Shown: piece by piece, positions 9,846 through 43,332 of the stretch | Numbering within the stretch: the stretch's first letter is position 1 | Layout: each line of letters opens with the position of its first letter | From: a virus | Length of the DNA: 46,909 nucleotides | Virus record (IMG/VR): IMGVR_UViG_3300029336_000005 | Strand: one strand, 5' to 3' | The notes under the pieces: generated by a model | What the model was told of the DNA's origin: nothing | The model's input: the letters and a program-made list of their open reading frames with translations, nothing else | Database searches by the model: none | Made by a program: the position numbers and the translations under genes

Positions 9846-9866
9846 TTAGTCACAGTTAGTCACAAA
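9846..9866 (+). repeat. Second tandem pair TTAGTCACA-g-TTAGTCACAAA, same orientation, overlapping the integrase stop codon
   Basis: Read directly, ~198 bp from the first pair and preceded by the same cgg context. Confidence 0.7.
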
Positions 9867-11021
9867 CGGGACTTTTATCTTTTCAATCTCTGCCCGGAGT
9901 TCTGCTAGTGTCCTGTGACCGTACACAGCGTTCGTGACATCGTTTCCAAACGAATGTCCCAGCATCCTCTTCCGATCGTTCTCCCGGACGCCATATTTTT
10001 CACACAGAGTAGAAAAGGTGTGTCGACAATCGTGCGGTGTGTGCTTCGGGTCGCCGGTTATTTTCAAGCGTTCCAGTGTAGGGTAAAACAGGGCGTTTCG
10101 GTGTTGTGTCTGGGAATAGATGCAGAGCCTGCCGTTTTGCGTCAGGACCTTGTTCTTCGCAAACTCATATATGGACGGATGAATCGGAACGATCCTGTCT
10201 TTTCCGGCTGCGGTCTTGATGCCACCCTGGAAATATCTTTCTTCAAGATTTGTCGTAAGCTTCAGGACCTCGCCAATTCGCCAGCCGGAGTAGCACATGA
10301 TCAGAATGAGCTGTACTTCTGGATCATCGGTGTTATTCCAGAGAATTTGCAATTCCTCATCCGAAAAAGGTGTGCCATGCTCCGTATCATCATTTGCGTT
10401 AACTTTTACATATAAAGCCTTGTTTTCCGACACAATTTCTGAATAAATGGCATACTTATACATCTGTTTAAAGAGGGTTAATATAATTGCTTTGCTTTGC
10501 TTCTTAAGAGTGCATTTGTCTATTACGTCTTGCAAGTCGGGGGCTTTTAAATCTTCAAATGTGCGATTGCGCAATGTTTTACAGTTTGAGTAAGCTGTTT
10601 TGTATGATTCCATCGAGCTATAAGACGCTTTTGTTCCGTCTGGAAATTTCCATGCGTAGAATTGTTCATATACCTCTGAGAACGTCAATTTGTGCGTTTC
10701 CGGGTGTTTTTCTTCTGTGCCCTTAAATGTATTGTAGTCCGACAAAATACGGCTTATAAGGGCGTCTGCGTCCGTTGTAGGGGCAATCTCAAGTTCCTTT
10801 TCCATACCTGGCTTGTACGTTCCGGCTTTGTATGCTGTCAGAACGGCGAACCCTTTCAGATAGTCGTCAACGTAGCAGATCGCAGGCGGACGGATCGCTT
10901 TTCCTGTTGCGTCAATCGTTGCCGGTGGGTGCACTGCATAGCAGTTTCTTCGACCCTTGCCGAGATAGCGGATAGACCCGAAACTATTCGGCAATTTCGG
11001 GTATTTCTTTCTTTTTGCCAT
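9846..11021 (-). CDS. int: Tyrosine recombinase (phage integrase)
   Basis: 391 aa. The C-terminal catalytic region has WRIGE, HDCRHTF, LGHS and a Y in VYGH. RBS is aaggagga. Confidence 0.9.
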   Translation of the reverse strand: MAKRKKYPKLPNSFGSIRYLGKGRRNCYAVHPPATIDATGKAIRPPAICYVDDYLKGFAVLTAYKAGTYKPGMEKELEIAPTTDADALISRILSDYNTFKGTEEKHPETHKLTFSEVYEQFYAWKFPDGTKASYSSMESYKTAYSNCKTLRNRTFEDLKAPDLQDVIDKCTLKKQSKAIILTLFKQMYKYAIYSEIVSENKALYVKVNANDDTEHGTPFSDEELQILWNNTDDPEVQLILIMCYSGWRIGEVLKLTTNLEERYFQGGIKTAAGKDRIVPIHPSIYEFAKNKVLTQNGRLCIYSQTQHRNALFYPTLERLKITGDPKHTPHDCRHTFSTLCEKYGVRENDRKRMLGHSFGNDVTNAVYGHRTLAELRAEIEKIKVPFVTNCD

Positions 11022-11075: not shown

Positions 11076-11645
11076 TTACTCTATCTCGTCAATATCAAGA
11101 GAATATCCCAGCACTTCTCCGACATCTGTACATTTTCCTTTTAATGTAACGGTATCGCCTTTGGTAAGAGATGCTACCTTTGATTTTTGCTCGTCATTTT
11201 TGATATTGCACTGTACGCCAATGATTTCAAAATCGCCATCTGCCGTAAGATTTATGTATTCACCAGAAGCATCAATATTAGTAAGTTTTCCGGTGATCTC
11301 AAGATATTTACCTTTGTATTTATCAGATGCACCCATGGCGTTGCTATCAAGATCGGACATCATATCATTAACGGAAACAGCAGTATACTCGATCGGCGCA
11401 GCTTCTTCTTTTGATTTAGCAGCAGTTTCTTTCTTTTCTGAAGAAGTAGCGGTTGCTGCGCTTTTATCTGATTCTGAATCACTTTCGCCAGCTACAGCTC
11501 CGATGATAGCTCCGACAAGGATTATCAGTACAACCCATTTGAGTTTTCCGCCTTTTAATTTCTTTCGGCACTGCGGGCAGACCTTAGCATCTGCCGGAAT
11601 CTCTGTTTTACAATACTTGCATTTCTTTGTTTTTTCTTCGCTCAT
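11076..11645 (-). CDS. Membrane-anchored zinc-ribbon protein with an extracytoplasmic OB-fold (tRNA_anti-like) domain
   Basis: CKYCKTEIPADAKVCPQCRKK, then one TM (WVVLIILVGAIIGAV), a Ser/Thr/Lys linker, and a C-terminal YKGKYLEITGKL...GDTVTLKGKC pattern. Confidence 0.6.
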   Translation of the reverse strand: MSEEKTKKCKYCKTEIPADAKVCPQCRKKLKGGKLKWVVLIILVGAIIGAVAGESDSESDKSAATATSSEKKETAAKSKEEAAPIEYTAVSVNDMMSDLDSNAMGASDKYKGKYLEITGKLTNIDASGEYINLTADGDFEIIGVQCNIKNDEQKSKVASLTKGDTVTLKGKCTDVGEVLGYSLDIDEIE

Positions 11646-11648
11646 GCT

Positions 11649-12353
11649 TTATTTCCCTCCAATGACGTAGTTTTCATATTTTTCTCTTATTTTCGCAAGT
11701 TCTCTTTGCCTGATCGGGACGATCGCGCCAGATACCATCGTAAAAAAATAGCTTACTTCGCTTACCTCGTCCATATTAACTATATAGCTCTGGTGGCAGC
11801 GCAAAAATCTTCCGTCAAGACTCTTTTCGATATCATTGAGCTTTCCTCGTTCCTTGTGCGATATTCCGCACGTGCAATGGACCATTATGTATTTGTTCTG
11901 GCTTTCGATGTATTCAATATGCCGGAATTCAGCTCTGTGAAAGTAGTCCTTGTTCTTGATAGTAAGCGTTTTTTCACGGATATTTTCAAGCGTCTGCTCA
12001 ACAACTGAATACATTCTTCCATGCTCAGAGCCTTTAATGATGTAATGAACCGGCAGCACATCAAGTGCATCAAATACATATTCTTTGCGTTCTGTCCAAA
12101 AAGTGATATTTCCATAGTATCCGATTTTTCTTAATCTTTTGGCAATCTCTATGCCATTTTCTCCGTTAATGAAGACATCAAGAATTATTATGTCATACCA
12201 TTCACCATCTGAAACATCGTCGATCAAAGGCTTTCCGCTGGTGTAGGCGGTTAATGTATATCCACCATCACCATGCTCTTTTAGATATCGGTCAATGCTA
12301 TTTTTGAAAATCTCAATCCGTAAATTATCATCGTCACAAATCGCAATTTTCAT
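11649..12353 (-). CDS. LytTR-family response regulator (receiver plus LytTR DNA-binding domain)
   Basis: MKIAICDDD, IIILDV (phospho-acceptor Asp), ITFWT and YIIKG in the receiver. The C-terminus has the LytTR pattern (FLRCHQSYIVNMD). Start moved to the second ATG for RBS spacing. Confidence 0.8.
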   Translation of the reverse strand: MKIAICDDDNLRIEIFKNSIDRYLKEHGDGGYTLTAYTSGKPLIDDVSDGEWYDIIILDVFINGENGIEIAKRLRKIGYYGNITFWTERKEYVFDALDVLPVHYIIKGSEHGRMYSVVEQTLENIREKTLTIKNKDYFHRAEFRHIEYIESQNKYIMVHCTCGISHKERGKLNDIEKSLDGRFLRCHQSYIVNMDEVSEVSYFFTMVSGAIVPIRQRELAKIREKYENYVIGGK

Positions 12354-12421
12354 GTAAATCATTCCCTTGTAAACATTGTTTTCGCCATTTGCAAAAAAAA
12401 GTGTTTAAATATGTTATTTTT

Positions 12422-12985: not shown

Positions 12986-13018
12986 GGGGCAGGAGTTACA
13001 TCCTGTCCCTATCTTTTT
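12986..13018. terminator. Bidirectional terminator shared by the small ORF and the convergent repressor gene
   Basis: Stem ggggcagga/tcctgtccc, loop gttaca, with T-runs on both strands. Confidence 0.7.
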
Positions 13019-13388
13019 ACTCCTCTTTCTTGTCCGCTAAAGCGTTCGCAAGTTTCTGAAGTGTTTCCCATTCTGATTCATTTAGATTAGCAAGTATTTC
13101 TACTAATCGTATCTTGAAGCTATCTGCTTCTCCATTCAGAACCGAACCAACGAAATCCGCAATCTCGGATTTTCTCTTATTCTGGATGAACATATCACCT
13201 GTTCCCTTAGTCAGCCATTCGTAGTTGACTTTGAATTCCCTACAGATATCCTTGACAGTTCGATCTGATGGAACTCTTTCTCCTTTTTCTATCATCCAAA
13301 CAAAATTCTTAGATACCCCGATTTTCTCGGCGAACTCATCCTGAGTCATCTTCGCAGTCTTTCTTATTTGTTGAATCCTGGTATTCAC
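13017..13388 (-). CDS. CI-like XRE-family repressor
   Basis: HTH IRKTAKMTQDEFAEKIGVSKNFVWMIEKGERVP, and the gene is divergent from the early operon. Start set at the GTG 8 nt after AGGAGGTG (the track start at 13397 overlaps the RBS). Confidence 0.8.
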   Translation of the reverse strand: MNTRIQQIRKTAKMTQDEFAEKIGVSKNFVWMIEKGERVPSDRTVKDICREFKVNYEWLTKGTGDMFIQNKRKSEIADFVGSVLNGEADSFKIRLVEILANLNESEWETLQKLANALADKKEE

Positions 13389-13420
13389 TCTTTTCACCTC
13401 CTATTCTTAACTGCAAGTAT

Positions 13421-28248: not shown

Positions 28249-29394
28249 ATGAATGTTCAAGAAATTAAATTAAAAGACATAAAACCGTATGAAAAGAACC
28301 CAAGAAAAAATGATGATGCAGTTCCTTACGTCGCTGAAAGTATAAAACAATTTGGATTTAAAGTTCCGATTGTTATTGATAAGAACAACGTAATTGTCGC
28401 TGGACATACCCGATACAAAGCAGCAAAGAAACTCGGATTCAAGAGCGTACCATGTATTATTGCCGATGATTTGACAGACGAACAGATAAAAGCTTTTCGT
28501 TTAGCTGACAATAAGGTATCTGAAAAGGCAGAATGGGATTTAGATTTACTGGACAGCGAAATTGAAGGAATATTCGATATTGATATGACTGATTTTGGGT
28601 TTGAACTCGAATCAGAAGAATTAGAAGCTGAAGAAGATGAATACCAAGGAGCCGTTCCAGATAACCCTTTTACTCAAAAAGGTGATATGTGGAAGTTGGG
28701 GGAGCATCTGCTTTTATGTGGAGATAGCACATGTATCACAGATATTGAGAAATTAATGCATGAAGAAAAGGCTGATATGTGTTTCACTGATCCGCCTTAC
28801 GGATATGAATACCAAAGTAACTTAAGAAAAAAAAGCAAGAAGTTCGACGTCATTGAAAACGATGATAAAATATTAGACTTTTTTCCGAGTATACAGCTTG
28901 TGTGCAATGGTTTTATATTCATATGCACGACGTGGAAAGTATTAGATAAATGGATACCGCTATTTAAAAAATATCATGATTTAACGAATATGATTATCTG
29001 GAACAAAGGTGGAGGCGGAATTGGTGACTTGAAACATACTTTCAGCACTGACTACGAAGTTATACTATGCGCAAATAATGGCAAGGAAATAACTGGAAAA
29101 AGAATCGGTTCCGTATGGACCATAAAAAAAGATTCTTCTTCTGAATACGTTCATCCTACGCAAAAGCCAATAAAGTTGTCAGAATTTGCAATAAGGAACA
29201 CAACAGAGCGTGGAGATATTGTTCTTGATTTATTTGGAGGTTCGGGATCCACATTAATTGCCTGTGAGCAAATGGACCGCAGATGTAGGATGATGGAATA
29301 CGATCCAGCTTATTGCGACGTGATAGTGGACAGATGGGAAAAATTCACAGGAAATAAAGCAAAATTAATCAGAGGGGTAGAAGGAAATGAATAG
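28249..29394 (+). CDS. ParB-like nuclease domain fused to an N6-adenine/N4-cytosine DNA methyltransferase
   Basis: KPYEKNPRKN...VAGHTRYKAAKKLG (ParB N-terminus). FTDPPYG (motif IV) precedes LDLFGGSGST (motif I). Confidence 0.85.
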   Translation: MNVQEIKLKDIKPYEKNPRKNDDAVPYVAESIKQFGFKVPIVIDKNNVIVAGHTRYKAAKKLGFKSVPCIIADDLTDEQIKAFRLADNKVSEKAEWDLDLLDSEIEGIFDIDMTDFGFELESEELEAEEDEYQGAVPDNPFTQKGDMWKLGEHLLLCGDSTCITDIEKLMHEEKADMCFTDPPYGYEYQSNLRKKSKKFDVIENDDKILDFFPSIQLVCNGFIFICTTWKVLDKWIPLFKKYHDLTNMIIWNKGGGGIGDLKHTFSTDYEVILCANNGKEITGKRIGSVWTIKKDSSSEYVHPTQKPIKLSEFAIRNTTERGDIVLDLFGGSGSTLIACEQMDRRCRMMEYDPAYCDVIVDRWEKFTGNKAKLIRGVEGNE

Positions 29395-29397
29395 CAA

Positions 29398-30945
29398 ATG
29401 GCGAATGAAAAAAACTTAAGACCTGGAAGCATGCAAAGCAAGAGCGAAGTTAGAGAAAACGGAAGGAAAGGCGGAATCGCCTCCGGGCAGGCTCGCCGCA
29501 GGAAGAAAACCCTCTCTGAACTTGCGAAAATGATAGCTGACAATCCAGCACCCGACAATGCTCGCGCGAAGCTCGCCAAAATGGGAATAGCCGACGAGGA
29601 CGCAAACAATAACGCTGTTGTAGCAGCATCTATATACGCAAAAGCTGTCAAGGGCAATATGCAGGCAGTAGATAAATGGGAACAGTTGGTAGCTGTATCA
29701 AAATCTGACGAAAGCAAATATGAACTTCCTGCCAGAGTACTCGGCAAGGCATATGTGGACATTAACCGGCAAATCAAGCCTAATATCGAATATGTATTCG
29801 AGGGCGGTCGAGGCGGTCTGAAATCTTCTTATGTGGCTTTTAAAATTGTTGAGCTTATCAAGAATAATCCTCAGATGCATGCCTGCATTACAAGGCAGGT
29901 AGCTGGAACTCTGAAAGATTCCGTATATGCTAACATGAAATGGGCTATAAACGAACTTGGACTAATGGAAGAATTTGAATGTAAGGTGTCACCGCTTGAG
30001 ATCAAGTACATTAAAACTGGACAGACAATATACTTCCGTGGTCTGGACGATGAAACCAAACTGAAATCTATTAAGCCGGAGTTTGGATATATCGGGATCC
30101 TCTGGAAAGAGGAAAAAGATCAAATGAAGGGAGATGCCCAGGAACGTTCTGTTAATCAGTCAGTGCTTCGTGGTGGTGATGAATCCTATGATTTCTCGTC
30201 ATATAATCCGCCAAAATCAAAATCAAACTGGGTAAACAGGATTAAACTGGTACCTAACCCGAAAAGAGTTATCCATCATTCAAGTTATCTGGAAGCCCCG
30301 GCGGAGTGGCTCGGACAGAAGTTTATTGACGATGCAGCACATCTGAAAGAAATCAATCCAGAAGCTTATGAGCATGAATACCTGGGCGTTCCAAACGGTG
30401 ATGGTGGAAACGTCTTTGAATATCTGGAGATTAGAGATATTACAGATGAAGAGATCGGGCACATGGACAAAATATTTCAGGGGTGTGACTGGGGATTTTT
30501 CCCTGATCCGTATGCTTTTATTCGTTTGTATTACAATCATAACACTGAAAAGATATATCTCATTGATGAAATTTACGAAAATAAATGGAGCAATAGGAAA
30601 TCAGCAGACGAGATTCTAAAAAGAAAATATGATGATTATGCTATTACTTGTGATTCTGCCGAGCCTAAATCAATCAATGATTATAGAGATTTTGGACTCC
30701 CGGCAAGGGGTGCAATAAAAGGTCCTGGAAGTGTAGAATATTCTATGAAATGGTTTCAGACAAGGACTATCGTTATTGACCCTAAAAGAACGCCTAACGC
30801 TTATAAAGAGTTTTCAGAGTACGAATATGAAAGAGATAAGGACGGAAATATCATAAGTGGATATCCTGATGAAAACAATCATTTAATTGATGCCTGTAGA
30901 TACGCAACAGAATCATTGTGGAGAAGAAGGGGTAACAATGCATAA
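29398..30945 (+). CDS. terL: Terminase large subunit (PBSX-like) with a ~100-aa TerS-like basic N-terminal extension
   Basis: Walker A GGRGGLKSS, a nuclease C-terminus (DENNHLIDACRYA), and an N-terminus RKGGIASGQARRRKKT...AKAVKGNMQAVDKWEQL. No separate small-subunit ORF lies upstream. Confidence 0.85.
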   Translation: MANEKNLRPGSMQSKSEVRENGRKGGIASGQARRRKKTLSELAKMIADNPAPDNARAKLAKMGIADEDANNNAVVAASIYAKAVKGNMQAVDKWEQLVAVSKSDESKYELPARVLGKAYVDINRQIKPNIEYVFEGGRGGLKSSYVAFKIVELIKNNPQMHACITRQVAGTLKDSVYANMKWAINELGLMEEFECKVSPLEIKYIKTGQTIYFRGLDDETKLKSIKPEFGYIGILWKEEKDQMKGDAQERSVNQSVLRGGDESYDFSSYNPPKSKSNWVNRIKLVPNPKRVIHHSSYLEAPAEWLGQKFIDDAAHLKEINPEAYEHEYLGVPNGDGGNVFEYLEIRDITDEEIGHMDKIFQGCDWGFFPDPYAFIRLYYNHNTEKIYLIDEIYENKWSNRKSADEILKRKYDDYAITCDSAEPKSINDYRDFGLPARGAIKGPGSVEYSMKWFQTRTIVIDPKRTPNAYKEFSEYEYERDKDGNIISGYPDENNHLIDACRYATESLWRRRGNNA

Positions 30946-32501: not shown

Positions 32502-34070
32502 ATGGCAGATAAACCAGTAACAAGGGAAGAAAAATATCTTGCGTACTTGACAGGCGATTATAAGGGCGAACTCCCAAAGCCAATCACGAGAAAAGAGAAG
32601 TATTTATACGAATTATGTTTAAAAGGAATAGGCGGCGAAATCTCACCGGAAGAAATCAAAGCCGCAGTAAATGAGTACCTCGAAAAGAATCCAGTCAAGC
32701 CCGGAGCCACGACAGAACAGGCGCAGCAGATCGAGCAGAACAAGACGGACGTTGCTTCACTGAAAGAGGAAACTAATTCACTAAAGGAAGATTTAGGTAA
32801 TTGTATAAGAATTGCAAATCATACGCGTTTAACGCCGGTGTTTGAGAAAAAAGGTCTACATTGGAGTTGTAACACAGACTATAAATTGTGTACATTGTAT
32901 GCAAATGAATATAAGGAAGCAAAAGTATATGAAGTCCATAAAGGAAAGCGTTATACCGTTTGTGGTATGTCTGATGGGAATAACACATCTCCGCTGGTCA
33001 TTTTTTCAAAAACTTATCCCACCGTAAAAGGTGAAACAAGCCCTTATGAAAACTTTATTGCGGGTAGTAATAGTGGACAAAGTGTTACTACTGAAAAACA
33101 TATTTCTTCACCGATTGATGGGTACATGCTTGTAACATCTTCAACAGTGTATGGCGGTTATGCAATTGAAGAAAGTGTAAGAACAATTATAGACGACCGA
33201 TACGGGCTGTATGTTTCCGATGGGTGTTATACAACTTTTTCGAAGATTGGAAGTAATGTCTATTTGTGTAGAGTGTTTAAAAATGTATACGTTAATAAAT
33301 TATTCGATTTTAACGCTTGTTACATCGGAAAATTTGACGAATATGGCGAACTATATAACTATAAAGATTTTGGAACTTTCCCATCTGATGTAGTCGGGCC
33401 AATTGCCATTCGAGAAAATGATTGGAGCGCAACTACAAAATTTAGTGGGGGATCACATGGAATTGATATTGGCGGAACTGTATATCCGACAGCAAAACAA
33501 GAAATGTTGCTCGTCAAATGTGGAGGTGTAACGATAGATGCTGACGGATATTATATAGGTCAAACTGAATTTGTGTCAAAAAATATATTATATATTCCCA
33601 TGACAATTACTGGCAATGACCTATCTTCTGCGAAAGAAGGAATCAAAGAAACTCGACGTTATTGCATAGACGATGTTTTAAGTGTTTCCGTAGATTATAA
33701 TATGCTTACTGATATTATAGCTGATGTTCTATATGGTTTTCAGCTTCAAATATATGGCATGGAAAAAGTAACGCTTCCGAACAATGAAGTGAAAGTTTTT
33801 GTGAATCAAGAGCAGAATTATGTGTTTGAAAAACCTGAAAACAAGTATATATGCACTAACGAAACCGGAGACTATTGTTCGATAGAAATGTCCACTTGCG
33901 GTCTTGGTAATTTCTCAAAAAATAATGGAGAAAGTAATACAAAATATGGTTATATTAGTGTTTTTAAAAACCCTAATAAAATATATTTTCAATTAATAAA
34001 CCATGGAGTTCAACTCGCTACTGGAAAAACATTACATTGGGACGCTATATGTAATCATAGACCACACTAA
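32502..34070 (+). CDS. Fibre/receptor-binding-like protein in the head-assembly region
   Basis: N-terminal duplicated TREEKYLAYLTG / TRKEKYLYELCLKG motif, then a coiled coil (QAQQIEQNKTDVASLKEETNSLKEDL). The C-terminal ~400 aa are visibly AT-rich. Confidence 0.45.
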   Translation: MADKPVTREEKYLAYLTGDYKGELPKPITRKEKYLYELCLKGIGGEISPEEIKAAVNEYLEKNPVKPGATTEQAQQIEQNKTDVASLKEETNSLKEDLGNCIRIANHTRLTPVFEKKGLHWSCNTDYKLCTLYANEYKEAKVYEVHKGKRYTVCGMSDGNNTSPLVIFSKTYPTVKGETSPYENFIAGSNSGQSVTTEKHISSPIDGYMLVTSSTVYGGYAIEESVRTIIDDRYGLYVSDGCYTTFSKIGSNVYLCRVFKNVYVNKLFDFNACYIGKFDEYGELYNYKDFGTFPSDVVGPIAIRENDWSATTKFSGGSHGIDIGGTVYPTAKQEMLLVKCGGVTIDADGYYIGQTEFVSKNILYIPMTITGNDLSSAKEGIKETRRYCIDDVLSVSVDYNMLTDIIADVLYGFQLQIYGMEKVTLPNNEVKVFVNQEQNYVFEKPENKYICTNETGDYCSIEMSTCGLGNFSKNNGESNTKYGYISVFKNPNKIYFQLINHGVQLATGKTLHWDAICNHRPH

Positions 34071-34149: not shown

Positions 34150-35379
34150 ATGCTTAGTCCTGAATATTTACGCCGGATAACAGAGGGCAGTGAACAGATT
34201 GCAGAAGAACTGCATCAGTATATCATCTCTGAGATTGTATCGCGGATGATGGCAAGAATCGGCAGAGGTGAGGACTATATTCTGACCAATGCGGATGCAT
34301 GGAGAATCAGAACATTACAGGAATCCGGTGAGCTGCTAGAAGACATTCTGGCAGAATTATCCAAATATACAAAACGTGAACAACAGGAACTCCTTGAAGC
34401 GTTTGAAGATGCCGGAATCACTGCAATGGAGTATGATGATAAAGTATACAAGGCGGCGGGGCTAAGCCCTGTACCGCTTGAGCAGTCCCCGGCTATGATA
34501 AGACTCATGGAGCGGAATATGCTTGCGACTATGGGTGAGTGGAAGAACTTCACACGGACAACCGCAAGCGTCGCTCAAAGGCTCTATATTGAGCAATGCG
34601 ACCTTGCATATAATCATGTGATGACTGGGGCGGTTGGGTATACGCAAGCCATCAAAGAGGCAGTTAACAATGTTGTGAGTGATGGTGTTACTGTCACATA
34701 CCCATCTGGCAGAAAAGACACGATTGAAACAGCAGTTGCACGTTCCGTCAGAACCGGTGTGGCACAGGCTACGGGAGATATATCCCTCAAACGCATGGAA
34801 GAAATGGACTGGGATTTAGTTCTGGTCAGTGCGCACATAGGAGCGAGGACGGGCGACGGCGGTCAGAATCCCGGAAATCACTCATGGTGGCAAGGCAAGA
34901 TATACTCTCGTTCTGGCAAGAGTAAGAAATTTCCGCCGTTCTCATTGACCGGATATGGGACAGCAAGCGGACTGTCAGGGGTCAACTGTCGGCATAGCTT
35001 TGGGGCAAGTGATGGAGAATTCAACCCCTATGCAGAACTATCAGCACAGGATAAAGCTGATAAAGGCAAACAGTACGAAAAGGAGCAACGGCAACGTACT
35101 TATGAGCGAAGAATCCGCAAAACGAAGAGAGAAGTTCTCGGAATGCAAGCGGCGGTTAATAACTGCAAGGACGAACAGGCAAGATTTGCACTCCAGCAAG
35201 ACCTTGACCGGAAGTCTTATCTTTTGCAGAAACAAAATGCTGCATATAAAGATTACTGCAATCAAAACGACCTAAGAGAGCTGCAAGACCGGCTCATGAT
35301 TGCTAAATGGAACCGCCAGAACGCCGCTAAAGCCAGAGGAGCGGCAAAACGGTATAAAACAGCAAAGGGGATTGACTGA
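34150..35379 (+). CDS. Minor head protein (Mu F / SPP1 gp7 family)
   Basis: GVNCRHSF motif, a basic coiled C-terminus, and position after the portal region. Confidence 0.75.
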   Translation: MLSPEYLRRITEGSEQIAEELHQYIISEIVSRMMARIGRGEDYILTNADAWRIRTLQESGELLEDILAELSKYTKREQQELLEAFEDAGITAMEYDDKVYKAAGLSPVPLEQSPAMIRLMERNMLATMGEWKNFTRTTASVAQRLYIEQCDLAYNHVMTGAVGYTQAIKEAVNNVVSDGVTVTYPSGRKDTIETAVARSVRTGVAQATGDISLKRMEEMDWDLVLVSAHIGARTGDGGQNPGNHSWWQGKIYSRSGKSKKFPPFSLTGYGTASGLSGVNCRHSFGASDGEFNPYAELSAQDKADKGKQYEKEQRQRTYERRIRKTKREVLGMQAAVNNCKDEQARFALQQDLDRKSYLLQKQNAAYKDYCNQNDLRELQDRLMIAKWNRQNAAKARGAAKRYKTAKGID

Positions 35380-36084: not shown

Positions 36085-36291
36085 ATGCTCATGAAATTAT
36101 ATGTGTTCACAAAGAAAGATATAGACAGGTTCTTGATAGAGTGTAATTTTACACCGGATGAAGAAAAGCTGTTCCGGCTGAGATGCCAGGAACGCACTCT
36201 TGAATACTGCGCTGAACAGATGAATGTGAGTATATCCACGGCGAAACGGTTAAGCCGCCGGGTAAACAATAAAATAATCAAAGTATGCTAA
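36085..36291 (+). CDS. Small sigma-70 region-4-like HTH protein (candidate late transcription factor)
   Basis: FTPDEEKLFRLRCQERTLEYCAEQMNVSISTAKRLSRRVNNKI. The start may be the second ATG at 36091. Confidence 0.55.
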   Translation: MLMKLYVFTKKDIDRFLIECNFTPDEEKLFRLRCQERTLEYCAEQMNVSISTAKRLSRRVNNKIIKVC

Positions 36292-36297
36292 AAGTAA

Positions 36298-36330
36298 GGA
36301 GAGGATATTTTTACCCTCTCCCATTTTTTT
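36298..36330. terminator. Bidirectional terminator between convergent genes
   Basis: Stem ggagagg/cctctcc followed by cattttttt on the plus strand. Confidence 0.7.
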
Positions 36331-37030
36331 AACAAAAATCTTCTTTTACAACCCTTTCAAGTAGATTTATCACGTATTCTGGTGGAGTTCGTTTACCGCC
36401 CTCCCAATTTTCAATACTCCTCTTAGGAATACCGTATTTTTCAGAAAAAGCTTGCTGCGTGAGTCCAGATAACGTTCTAATTTCGTGAAAATCGAGAGGA
36501 TTTGAAGAAACTTTTTCAGGAAATACATCCTCTTCTCTTACCTGATATGTGAAGAATCCCATCGAGGATGGAAGAATTCTAAAATAAAACTTTTCATCGT
36601 TATCTTCTTCTATCCAGGTTTGCTGTAAAAATATTTTTGGACACCATTCTTCTGCTGCAAATAGTTCATCCGTGTCAGAATAAACAAAGTAAGAACATAA
36701 ATCACCTGTACTAGCTTTTATTCTTTTCACTTCATCATAGATAAATTTTGTTCTGACGTATCGTACTACGCTAAGTACCTGTTCTATACTAAGATCCGGA
36801 AACAAAATTTCAATTTGCTTATAAGTTTTACTCCATAGCCACATATGATATTTATCATCTAATTCCACTGGCGTATCAATGTAACCGTCGCCACGAGCTG
36901 ACAAGAGATGGTACACAAAGCTAGTTATCTCTTTATCATTTGGAAATAGTAAAAGATTTGACTTTTCCTGATCCTCAAGATCTTGTTTTACCATGTCTAA
37001 AAACTTTTCATATTCATATTTTTTAATCAT
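36329..37030 (-). CDS. Two-domain protein: unknown N-terminal domain plus a C-terminal MqsA/HigA-like XRE HTH
   Basis: C-terminus IRTLSGLTQQAFSEKYGIPKRSIENWEGGKRTPPEYVINLL. AT-rich and antisense to the late operon. Confidence 0.65.
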   Translation of the reverse strand: MIKKYEYEKFLDMVKQDLEDQEKSNLLLFPNDKEITSFVYHLLSARGDGYIDTPVELDDKYHMWLWSKTYKQIEILFPDLSIEQVLSVVRYVRTKFIYDEVKRIKASTGDLCSYFVYSDTDELFAAEEWCPKIFLQQTWIEEDNDEKFYFRILPSSMGFFTYQVREEDVFPEKVSSNPLDFHEIRTLSGLTQQAFSEKYGIPKRSIENWEGGKRTPPEYVINLLERVVKEDFC

Positions 37031-37031
37031 T

Positions 37032-37484
37032 TTATTTTTCTCCTTTCTTTTCTTTTCCGTTGTAGTGTTTTAATATGCTATAGAAATAGTCTTCACAATA
37101 GCAACCGCGTTCTTTACTGAGTATTGCATATAAGCTGTCGTGCGGATTCCTTGGTTCTATGGCGTATTCGCGATGATTAATAAACCAGCTTGCTTCTGTA
37201 ATGGTGAATAAAATATTTACGGTTCTTTTTACTCTTTCTAATCTTTTGACGCGGCTATTAACTCTGTGATATTCAACAAGACTGTTTCCATACTCGATCA
37301 TCTTCTTACGAATATCCTCAGCCCAGGCAATCTGTTTCGGACTCCCAACCAGTTCTGGTAATTCTTTACACATACCTTTTACTTCCTTCCATGCTTTCTT
37401 AAGACCGGAGGAAATAGACATTCCAGCTTTCTTAACTAACTCCCATGCCCTTTTCATGATTGCTGATAAATTATATTTTTTCAT
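37032..37484 (-). CDS. Hypothetical protein, first gene of the antisense cassette
   Basis: 150 aa with motifs IMKRAWELVKKAG, LKKAWKEVKG and GSPKQIAWAEDIRKKM. RBS aaggagga. The stop abuts the start of the next gene. Confidence 0.55.
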   Translation of the reverse strand: MKKYNLSAIMKRAWELVKKAGMSISSGLKKAWKEVKGMCKELPELVGSPKQIAWAEDIRKKMIEYGNSLVEYHRVNSRVKRLERVKRTVNILFTITEASWFINHREYAIEPRNPHDSLYAILSKERGCYCEDYFYSILKHYNGKEKKGEK

Positions 37485-37525
37485 ATCTTTTTCCTCCTTG
37501 ATTTCTTGTTCCTCTTTCTGATATT

Positions 37526-37554
37526 ATAATACCACCCAGTGGGTGATATGTCAA
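37526..37554 (-). promoter_or_regulatory. Near-consensus sigma70 promoter with an embedded palindromic operator, driving the antisense cassette
   Basis: Minus strand reads TTGACA, 17 nt, TGgTATTAT. The spacer contains CACCCA-n-TGGGTG (37533-37545). Confidence 0.7.
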
Positions 37555-37631
37555 TACTTTTTTGACACTTTCTTGAACTTTTTAGATTGATGTATCTATG
37601 CAAAAATATAATCAGAAAGGTGGTGCGTAAA

Positions 37632-38102
37632 ATGGCATTATATAACAATCCTTATCAATATAGTTTTGGTGTTCCGGGGCAAATGAATCAGTTCCAACAA
37701 CAGCCTGTCCAGATACCAGCTCAACCAGTACAGCAACCCCAACAGAATAATAATGGTATCCTGTGGGTATCCGGCGAAGTCGGTGCAAAATCCTATCTGG
37801 TAGCACCCGGAACAAGTGTTTTACTGATGGACAGTGAAAGTGAAAAATTCTTTATAAAATCCACAGACGTTTCCGGTATGCCACAGCCATTACGGACGTT
37901 TGAATACCACGAGGTAGGCACTCAGATGCCACCTAAACAGCCTGTTCAAAATATGGACAGTAAATACGTCACCAGACAGGAATATGACGATTTAAAGGGC
38001 AAATACGAAGCTATCATAAACCGATTAAATTCTTTTTCTGAACCTGTTAGAACTAATACCGCACAGGAATCGGCGGTCAAGGGAGGAAATGCAGATGAGT
38101 AA
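37632..38102 (+). CDS. Q/P-rich N-terminus plus a small beta-rich domain; unknown function (cassette gene 1)
   Basis: NQFQQQPVQIPAQPVQQPQQNNNG, then GILWVSGEVGAKSYLVAPGTSVLLMDSESEKFFIKSTD. Confidence 0.5.
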   Translation: MALYNNPYQYSFGVPGQMNQFQQQPVQIPAQPVQQPQQNNNGILWVSGEVGAKSYLVAPGTSVLLMDSESEKFFIKSTDVSGMPQPLRTFEYHEVGTQMPPKQPVQNMDSKYVTRQEYDDLKGKYEAIINRLNSFSEPVRTNTAQESAVKGGNADE

Positions 38103-42634: not shown

Positions 42635-43126
42635 ATGGCTTATGCAGATTATAAATTCTATACAGAATCATTCGGCAATGTCGTGCCAGAAACCGACTTT
42701 CCACGACTGGCAGAAAGAGCCAGTGATTTTATAGACACGATGACATTTAACAGACTGGTGGACGGACTGCCGACAAATGAACGCTCACAGAAGCGCATCA
42801 AAAAGGCGGTCTGTTCATTAGCTGAATTAATGTATCAGATTGAGCTTGCTGAAAAGAATGCTATCAATCAGGCGTCAGCAAATGTAACCGACATAAATGT
42901 CGGGAACATTTCAACAGGCATTGTAACATCTGTATCATCCGGCAGCGAATCCATCTCTTACGCAACACCTCAGCAGATTGGAGCAAGCGCAAAGGAATGG
43001 AGTGCGGTGTATGCCGCTGCCGGAGATACGCAGAAAACGAATGACTTACTCTTAAAGACAGCTTTGCCGCTTCTAATGGGAGTAAGGACGGATGATGGCA
43101 TACCAGTATTGTATGCAGAGGTGTGA
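42635..43126 (+). CDS. Head-tail connector (gp6-like)
   Basis: MAYADYKFYTESFGNVVPETDFPRLAERASDFID is a typical N-terminus. ATG lies 9 nt after aggagg. Confidence 0.65.
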   Translation: MAYADYKFYTESFGNVVPETDFPRLAERASDFIDTMTFNRLVDGLPTNERSQKRIKKAVCSLAELMYQIELAEKNAINQASANVTDINVGNISTGIVTSVSSGSESISYATPQQIGASAKEWSAVYAAAGDTQKTNDLLLKTALPLLMGVRTDDGIPVLYAEV

Positions 43127-43332
43127 ACATGAATAATCAGATTGAGAACAACTTTATGTACCATAGCCCGAAAGACGGGCAGGCAGAAAAATATGAAGAA
43201 GTCAGAGCAAAAGGAAAAGAACTGGCGTATCTGATTGATGGTATTTGCCCGAATAGTAGAGAGAAATCTCTTGCTATGACAAAACTTGAGGAATCCATCA
43301 TGTGGGCAAATGCTTCTATTACAAGAAATTGA
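43123..43332 (+). CDS. 69-aa hypothetical protein
   Basis: YHSPKDGQAEKYEEVR...PNSREKSLAMTKLEESIMWANASI. ATGA overlap. Confidence 0.35.
   Translation: MNMNNQIENNFMYHSPKDGQAEKYEEVRAKGKELAYLIDGICPNSREKSLAMTKLEESIMWANASITRN

Follow-up and report, generated by a model that had tools for sequence, protein, structure and literature searches.

Operons in which anti-CRISPR (acr) genes are accompanied by an anti-CRISPR-associated (aca) regulator share a recognizable layout, with a strong promoter that holds an inverted repeat between or over its -35 and -10 boxes, variable small genes in first position, and a conserved small helix-turn-helix (HTH) gene in the same operon as its constant marker. Aca proteins are reported to serve stacked neighboring operons, and ribbon-helix-helix (RHH) alternatives (Aca14) have been described (PMC13551039). 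Here, we describe a two-gene cassette, orfA-orfB, that lies antisense to the late genes of a 46,909-nucleotide viral sequence (IMG/VR record IMGVR_UViG_3300029336_000005; "the window" refers to this whole stretch). We give about even chances to the reading that this cassette is an anti-defense operon of the acr-aca type with an Aca-like autorepressor, a reading that we favor because of the acr-aca arrangement itself, the AcrIE7-like core of the orfA product, and an orphan Cas5b homologue encoded in sister cassettes. As acr-aca operons and anti-defense hotspots are well known, this would not be a new kind of system. What appears to be undescribed is the HTH family with its three operator classes, the AcrIE7-like protein of a Firmicute phage, the N-terminal "head" shared among cassette proteins, the N-terminal domain of orfB, and the hotspot in which the cassette resides; a search of the literature turned up no earlier account of the locus.

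The likeness to known acr-aca systems (Aca1-Aca13 and the RHH protein Aca14) extends to one regulator common to stacked operons and to RHH variants at the same site. Unlike in those systems, the HTH here is fused to the C-terminus of a 172-amino acid (aa) cargo domain and has no sequence match to solved Aca proteins, the first gene carries the conserved head, and the window cassette lies antisense within phage head-morphogenesis genes. Self-regulating Acr-Aca fusions such as AcrIIA1, AcrIF24, and AcrIIA13-15 combine a self-repressing HTH with a second, non-DNA-binding domain. orfB likewise joins an HTH and a second domain in one polypeptide, although its order, with the cargo domain N-terminal and the HTH C-terminal, differs from that of AcrIIA1 and it has no sequence relationship to these fusions. 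The HigB2-HigA2 and MqsR-MqsA toxin-antitoxin systems offer another point of comparison, as they too place a small gene first, followed by a gene that encodes an N-terminal partner-binding region and a C-terminal Xre-type HTH, under a palindromic operator, and they provide the closest characterized HTH relatives by both sequence and fold. The cassette differs from them in that it encodes neither a toxin like RelE or MqsR nor an MqsA zinc domain, and in the promiscuous pairing of its HTH.

Two further proteins bear directly on the cargo of these cassettes. AcrIE7, a 106-aa helical protein of Pseudomonas (PDB 9KJB, 9N3X), folds as a bundle of seven helices. It binds the single-stranded DNA (ssDNA) of the R-loop and shields it from Cas3 in type I-E/I-C systems. 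Its ssDNA binding depends on residues K6 and R49 (PMC12002350). The Cas5 homologue AcrIB3 has been proven to inhibit type I-B systems, and cas genes that occur as orphans in viruses are markers of anti-defense loci (bioRxiv 10.1101/2023.06.24.545427).

The insertion hotspot and its cargo

The cassette comprises orfA (37032-37484, minus strand; 150 aa) and orfB (36329-37030, minus strand; 233 aa). The TAA stop codon of orfA (37034-37032) and the ATG of orfB (37030-37028) are separated by a single base, and an AAGGAG Shine-Dalgarno sequence lies within the 3' end of orfA. All surrounding real genes are on the plus strand, and the GC content of the cassette is 34-35%, compared with 43-50% in the flanks. 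These features bear out the initial annotation, which had pointed to two AT-rich, abutting genes running against all of their neighbors, with a small protein followed by an HTH protein as in HigBA modules.

Comparison to a 46-kb relative (MT835739) reveals 85-90% identity on both sides of the cassette, with ~55 bp that include a plus-strand terminator where the window has ~1305 bp. Using the 156-aa protein encoded beside the cassette as an anchor, we surveyed this site in 88 loci, drawn from 80 close IMG/VR relatives together with GenBank and metagenome loci, and measured the gap in 87 of them, the remaining locus having no left anchor. The site is empty in 45 of the 87 (gap of 88-144 bp) and filled in 42 (insert of 631-2858 bp). 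With a single exception, the inserts are minus-strand cassettes of many kinds. The exception, a 980-bp insert in locus L017, carries a plus-strand open reading frame (ORF) for a 260-aa cysteine-rich protein with no assigned family. The orfA-orfB cassette is a swappable insertion, and its site is a hotspot of gene exchange in a prophage that is common in the human gut.

Filled sites share a common chassis. At the upstream end, the conserved flank TTTTTGCATA is followed by phased A-tracts and then by TTGAC(A/T)-palindrome-TAT(T/G)AT, and in every filled site the junction between insert and flank falls immediately after TTTTTGCATA. Near the downstream end lies a small HTH of the form ...IPKRTIENWEGGKRNPPEYV..LLERVVKED, which is encoded as a stand-alone protein of 54-59 aa in 21 loci and in 19 others forms the C-terminal part of a fusion with an orfB-type N-domain. 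Four more loci have a small RHH protein and a different inverted repeat in place of the HTH. At certain sites two cassettes are stacked, both under promoters of the same type, and in one of these (L002) the second cassette is without an HTH of its own.

This HTH and promoter chassis serves more than 10 unrelated cargo genes, most of them small and acidic. One class of cargo consists of proteins in which an orfA-type head is joined to different C-terminal domains, and such a head is found on the first gene behind 61 of 110 related promoters; another consists of about a dozen unrelated small proteins, mostly with an isoelectric point (pI) of 4-5. Recognizable enzymatic domains are absent from the hotspot cargo. 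Pfam searches of ten other cargo proteins returned sub-threshold hints only, and 17 other cargo proteins, joined without linkers, found no match when compared to the PDB.

Six loci (L010, L012, L014, L018, L031, L049), each with a 2272-bp insert, encode an orphan 229-aa homologue of type I-B Cas5b, recognized by TIGR01895 (E 7.4e-20, under the cut-off of the model) and 30% identical over its full length to annotated Cas5b proteins. These cassettes have the same promoter and HTH, plus one head-bearing protein and two small acidic proteins. The Cas5b homologue is a candidate AcrIB3-like Cascade poison; its gene lies outside this window, and its likeness to AcrIB3 is that of two Cas5 homologues. 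Together with the AcrIE7-like core of orfA, it provides the second of two independent homologies that link the hotspot to anti-CRISPR function.

Variable prophage hotspots often hold defense genes, and the cassette could instead be a defense or superinfection-exclusion moron that is expressed from the lysogen and shields the host from other phages, with the HTH protein as regulator or sensor. The antisense orientation, the dedicated promoter and terminator, the low GC content, and the presence or absence of the cassette among close relatives of a temperate phage (with integrase and CI-like repressor) would all suit such an element. However, a search of PADLOC-DB v2 gives weak generic HTH matches for orfB and none for orfA, the cargo found at the hotspot is small, mostly acidic, and devoid of recognizable enzymatic domains, and orfA shows AcrIE7-like homology. 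A Cas5b that is encoded alone, with no other Cascade subunit, cannot provide defense, and a Cas5 homologue is a known inhibitor. We regard a defense moron as quite unlikely.

Promoter, operator, and helix-turn-helix variants

The sigma-70-type promoter that the initial annotation had proposed, with TTGACA and TATTAT boxes 17 nt apart and a TG ahead of the latter, is present upstream of orfA (Table 1). It agrees with the consensus at 11 of 12 positions and is the top site of a 3-kb scan. Since promoter-like sites in this region are no commoner than in shuffled sequences, the scan by itself proves nothing. Transcription would be expected to start near 37519, and the phased A-tracts upstream of the -35 box are possibly an UP element. 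As also claimed, the spacer holds a perfect inverted repeat (CACCCA-n-TGGGTG), which has the frame CAC-N7-GTG. In its 17-nt form this palindrome occurs once in the window, even when three mismatches are allowed (chance expectation 0.07), and because the operator is unique in the window the HTH would be a local regulator. An RNA role for the palindrome was rejected, as RNA cannot fold into a hairpin with a stem of 6 bp and a loop of 1 nt and the element is located upstream of the predicted transcription start; Rfam searches found no RNA family in the region.

At the other end of the cassette, a terminator hairpin has T-runs on both strands, that on the minus strand being weaker than the T7 on the plus strand. 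Bidirectionality had been correctly noted, but the description of the two genes as bracketed by this terminator overstates the case, because the hairpin is present at one end of the cassette, the 3' end, and not at the other. It ends the upstream plus-strand genes as well as the cassette, and the empty sites of relatives have a different plus-strand terminator at the same position.

Table 1. Features of the orfA-orfB cassette, in window coordinates.
Feature	Position	Strand	Remarks
Entire inserted cassette	36292-37596	-	Without counterpart in close relatives (~55 bp between the same flanks)
Terminator hairpin GGAGAGG...CCTCTCC	36297-36322, element to 36330		T7 after it on the plus strand, TTACTTTT on the minus strand
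orfB HTH, residues 178-233 and stop; Xre-type, putative Aca-like autorepressor domain	36329-36499	-	HTH_3
orfB residues 1-172, acidic domain	36515-37030	-	Also a stand-alone protein of 176-187 aa
orfA residues 38-150 and stop, basic core	37032-37373	-	AcrIE7-like alignment at 37164-37352
orfA residues 1-37, lysine-rich helical-hairpin head	37374-37484	-	Conserved across sister cassettes
Ribosome binding site AAGGAGG	37493-37499	-	8 nt ahead of the orfA ATG; read from sequence
Sigma-70-type promoter	37526-37554	-	TTGACA (37554-37549), 17 nt, TATTAT (37531-37526) preceded by TG
Operator-like palindrome ATCACCCAcTGGGTGGT	37531-37547		Fills the promoter spacer; perfect core CACCCAgTGGGTG at 37533-37545
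A-tract-rich stretch, AAAAAG every ~11 nt	37555-37596	-	Upstream of -35; right end of the insert

A pattern scan of IMG/VR yielded at least 119 contigs and 128 promoter copies, with 30 operator variants. The search pattern itself set the CAC-N7-GTG frame, so the constancy of this frame among the 128 copies is not independent evidence, though it was first observed in the anchor-derived cassettes, before the scan. The inner operator bases were free to vary, and because they change mostly symmetrically (CCA/TGG, TCA/TGA, CAA/TTG, GCA/TGC), the comparison indicates that the palindrome is more than chance.

Operator class and HTH variant go together. Operators of the CAA/TTG type occur with the GKSKCPDYVRQLL HTH variant, ...ENWE(S/A)GKSKCPDYVRQLLERAVLED, in 29 of 29 cases, GCA/TGC operators with the EDWEAERR variant, IEDWEAERRTPPEY, in three of three, and all other operators but one with the GGKRNPPEYV or SGKRTPPEYV variant. 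This match persists across cassettes with different cargo. Such co-variation, to which physical linkage contributes as well, is the pattern expected of a cognate dimeric repressor and its operator, and the C-terminal HTH of orfB is the most plausible binder of the palindrome.

The orfA and orfB proteins and their possible roles

We found at least 453 homologues of orfA, and no name among them is informative. The orfA head, with the consensus MKKYNLSxIMKRAWELVKK...GLKKAWxEAK, is joined to different C-terminal domains in sister cassettes, and headless homologues begin exactly at M38. The protein is basic (pI 9.7), and its AlphaFold2 model is all-helical with a mean predicted local distance difference test score (pLDDT) of 85.5; Foldseek found no significant match to this model in the PDB or BFVD. 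Searching the orfA family profile against PDB sequences with hmmsearch identified AcrIE7 (E 1.4e-4), and HHalign matched orfA residues 45-107 to AcrIE7 residues 1-51 with 96.7% probability. Both family motifs, GS.KQ..WA..I and A...I.NR (in the stretch that orfA and AcrIE7 share, GSEKQxxWAxxI and AxxxIxNR), align, and K6 and R49 of AcrIE7 correspond to orfA K50 and R105, of which the former is K in 61 of 63 family sequences and the latter R or K in 50 of 51. The headless orfA core of 113 aa, which is basic and modeled as all-helical, resembles AcrIE7 (106 aa) in size as well. orfA differs in its extra 37-residue head, its dissimilar C-terminal half, and its Firmicute rather than Pseudomonas host. 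No similarity to orfA is detectable in the C-terminal half of AcrIE7, the match covering 51 of 106 AcrIE7 residues. A match to AcrIF23 (E 0.09) was too weak for use and is a lead only.

Because the C-terminal halves do not align and the motif is widespread, we take the relationship to AcrIE7 as domain homology, which does not establish a shared activity. A generic module for ssDNA binding that occurs in larger phage proteins (phrog_16123, profile length 368) could account for the AcrIE7-like motif, and the N-domain of orfB has no relatives of known function, which together would suit an accessory ssDNA-binding or regulatory pair acting outside immunity, in phage replication, recombination, or host physiology, with the promoter and HTH as a general moron chassis. 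Against this stand the dispensability of the cassette, half of the close relatives having no insert, and a site and regulator that also serve a Cas5b homologue and small acidic proteins of the kind usual at anti-defense loci. This, too, seems to us an improbable explanation.

Distant orfA-like genes are found alone or with other partners, as in Hungatella, Anoxybacillus phage A403, and Bifidobacterium phage BigBern1. The second genes behind the orfA-like genes of A403 and BigBern1 were considered as possible counterparts of orfB and rejected, as they are not related to its N-domain. In Hungatella hathewayi (CP102274, 2630-3411; locus L100), a solitary gene encodes a head and an AcrIE7-like core and is faced by a divergent 65-aa RHH gene; three TAG(C/T/G)GCGCTA repeats (TAGCGCGCTA-type) lie over the promoter of the orfA-like gene, and the element has different host-gene neighbors in different genomes. 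No orfA relatives were found in 72,556 plasmids.

Within orfB, Pfam HTH_3 matches residues 183-227 above its cut-off (E 1.8e-5). The solved structures closest to this HTH are Atu1735 and HigA2, the latter being the nearest of known function (E 1e-4, HTH region only; Foldseek probability 0.99). MqsA models score below their cut-offs (Pfam 12.8 vs. 30; TIGR03830 24.8 vs. 61.8), and no CxxC zinc-finger N-domain of the MqsA type is visible in the orfB sequence. No Aca was listed at E<=10 when the HTH profile was searched against the PDB, a comparison limited to Aca families with solved structures, and in Foldseek Aca10 appears at probability 0.57, among generic Xre folds. The AlphaFold2 model of orfB is poor (pLDDT 58), with the HTH domain alone at ~80-89, and Foldseek matches to it are restricted to the HTH domain.

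The N-domain of orfB (residues 1-172) is acidic (pI 4.6) and rare, with 16 cluster representatives among 1.84 billion proteins. A scan of 185,579 species genomes gave a single relative, in Ruminococcus sp. AM36-2AA, that consists of the N-domain alone. Most of the family is seen on contigs that are phage-like or belong to prophages. The N-domain found no relative in Pfam or the PDB, and a comparison of nine remote relatives to Pfam gave no meaningful domain, the sole long match being repetitive with spurious hits. Among promoter-anchored cassettes, genes for the orfA core and the orfB N-domain co-occur in 31 of 31 cases, usually with overlapping and otherwise with abutting stop and start codons. 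In the L089 prophage, an orfB N-domain without HTH lies directly behind a headless orfA, both ~85% identical to the window copies. Because this pair has neither head nor HTH and the two cores co-occur throughout the promoter-anchored cassettes, orfA and orfB look like a captured two-gene module whose ends were fused to the chassis, the head on orfA and the HTH on orfB.

Such tight pairing is also what a type II toxin-antitoxin or abortive-infection system of HigBA2/MqsRA layout would show, with basic orfA as a nucleic acid-binding toxin, the acidic N-domain of orfB neutralizing it, and the HTH repressing the operon. The small gene precedes the HTH gene by one base, the two cores remain paired even where the HTH is missing (L089), their pI values contrast sharply (9.7 vs. 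4.6), the HTH is closest to HigA2 and to MqsA-type models, and the palindrome lies within the promoter. However, Pfam, NCBIfam, and PADLOC show no toxin family, orfA is all-helical without a RelE, MqsR, Doc, or HEPN signature and is related to an anti-CRISPR, and orfB is without the MqsA zinc-finger N-domain. Moreover, the portable 54-59 aa HTH pairs with more than 10 unrelated genes and leaves no space for a neutralizing domain, orfA-like genes elsewhere are solitary or differently partnered (Hungatella, A403, BigBern1), and the N-domain family of orfB is tiny and scarce outside phage-like contigs, and orfA has no relative among the 72,556 plasmids searched. On this evidence we judge a toxin-antitoxin system unlikely, if not without real support.

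The initial annotation had put the cassette forward as a toxin-antitoxin, abortive-infection, or defense candidate and had called for profile and structure searches of both proteins. Its view of a self-contained accessory cassette with promoter, palindrome, and terminator stands, but toxin-antitoxin, abortive infection, and defense all fit poorly; the searches returned an AcrIE7-like orfA and a HigA2-like HTH, and no toxin or defense family for either protein. Because there is no such match, the cargo is varied and includes Cas5b, stacked cassettes can be without an HTH, and orfA appears to be kin to AcrIE7, sequence comparison argues for an anti-defense, acr-aca-like cassette rather than a defensive one. 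An Acb2/Tad1-hairpin gene in the same phage and the RHH-regulated versions at the hotspot, as with Aca14, are also supportive.

Several observations weigh against an anti-defense operon. By sequence, the HTH finds its nearest characterized relatives in the antitoxins HigA2 and MqsA and not in any solved Aca. The constant co-occurrence of the two cores, their coupled stop and start codons, and their basic and acidic character would equally suit a toxin and antitoxin, and an antisense position against late genes with a dedicated promoter and terminator is also typical of prophage-expressed defense morons. The AcrIE7 match is limited to 51 residues of the N-terminal half, the widespread GSxKQxxWA motif may be a general ssDNA-binding or helical module and not an anti-CRISPR marker, and Foldseek draws no link between the orfA model and AcrIE7. 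AlphaFold mispredicts AcrIE7, according to the authors of that study (PMC12002350).

If the anti-defense reading is correct, the strong sigma-70 promoter would fire upon entry of the DNA into the cell, and a dimer of the orfB HTH would then bind the palindrome between the -35 and -10 boxes and throttle the operon, in the lysogen as well. orfA would be the effector, its AcrIE7-like basic core probably binding ssDNA, for example the strand that is displaced in an R-loop of type I CRISPR systems, and thereby blocking Cas3. The acidic N-domain of orfB, which is always encoded right behind orfA, might be a second inhibitor or a partner that tempers orfA.

A more elaborate version, which we find doubtful as a whole, combines these elements. 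The HTH would belong to an undescribed Aca-like family with three co-evolving operator specificities, carried on a plug-in chassis of promoter, operator, and head at one end and HTH and terminator at the other. Both ends of this chassis would have been fused to a captured two-gene module, giving a headed AcrIE7-like ssDNA binder and a new acidic domain on the repressor. The acidic domain could act as a protein-level brake on a potentially harmful ssDNA-binding anti-CRISPR, and the head as a shared module that targets or times many effectors. If true, the acidic brake would place toxin-antitoxin logic inside an anti-defense operon.

Phage setting and other variable sites

The window is a temperate siphovirus-like phage, with an integrase (9846-11021), a CI-like repressor (13017-13397), and genes whose homologues in near-identical relatives have Pfam domains of terminase, minor-capsid, scaffold, and lysin proteins. 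Exact copies of orfB occur on metagenomic contigs of up to 135 kb, and homologues at 71% identity are named from metagenome-assembled genomes of Blautia massiliensis; on these grounds the phage is a prophage of human-gut Lachnospiraceae.

The cassette is flanked by genes for a 68-aa protein (36085-36291) and the 156-aa protein (37632-38102), both part of the head-morphogenesis block. The 68-aa protein, encoded on the plus strand, shows a sub-threshold similarity to region 4 of sigma-70 (E 0.006). A TATAAT box is conserved in the flank ahead of the 156-aa gene (37597-37631), and because this box is kept and a terminator is present even in empty sites, the hotspot lies at a transcription-unit boundary. 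The leader of the 156-aa gene also holds one to four tandem copies of a 12-nt unit, CTATGACTTATT (minus orientation), in numbers that differ among otherwise near-identical phages (empty sites L021, L068, L059, L075, L071, and L026).

Other parts of the genome vary as well. A 69-aa gene on the plus strand (43123-43332) encodes an Acb2/Tad1 hairpin domain (Pfam PF24729, E 6e-24), which belongs to a known anti-CBASS and anti-Thoeris sponge family. Relatives have Sequestin (PF21825) or DUF6275 at this spot instead, an alternation that points to a second variable anti-defense site in the phage family. The Phage_min_cap2 minor-capsid gene (34150-35379, plus strand) is split or adjoined in several relatives (L004, L006, L007, L008) by inserts that encode an HNH/NUMOD4 endonuclease or a small antisense RHH_3 gene, which suggests homing-type insertions. 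A 522-aa gene without family match (32502-34070, plus strand) has a GC content of 31-35%, compared with 43-50% around it, and is another variable module, as other genes replace it in some relatives.

Between the integrase and CI-like repressor genes lie two accessory genes (11076-12362, minus strand) for a protein with a zinc ribbon and a tRNA_anti-like oligonucleotide-binding fold and for a LytTR-type response regulator, an unusual gene to find in a lysogeny module. Directly ahead of the terminase-homologue gene (29398-30945), a plus-strand gene (28249-29394) encodes a protein in which a ParB N-terminal domain is fused to an N6/N4 DNA methyltransferase and which is probably a protective orphan methylase.

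The phages of human-gut Lachnospiraceae have so far yielded few known Acrs. If confirmed, the reading favored here would offer new anti-CRISPR and anti-defense candidates from an abundant family of such phages, including the AcrIE7-like protein of a Firmicute phage, the orphan Cas5b homologue, and ~15 small acidic proteins, along with a new Aca-like marker and operator for finding similar loci by association. The three matched operator and HTH classes are a ready system for the study of repressor specificity, and the strict pairing of a basic ssDNA binder with an acidic domain fused to the repressor could reveal how phages restrain a risky inhibitor.

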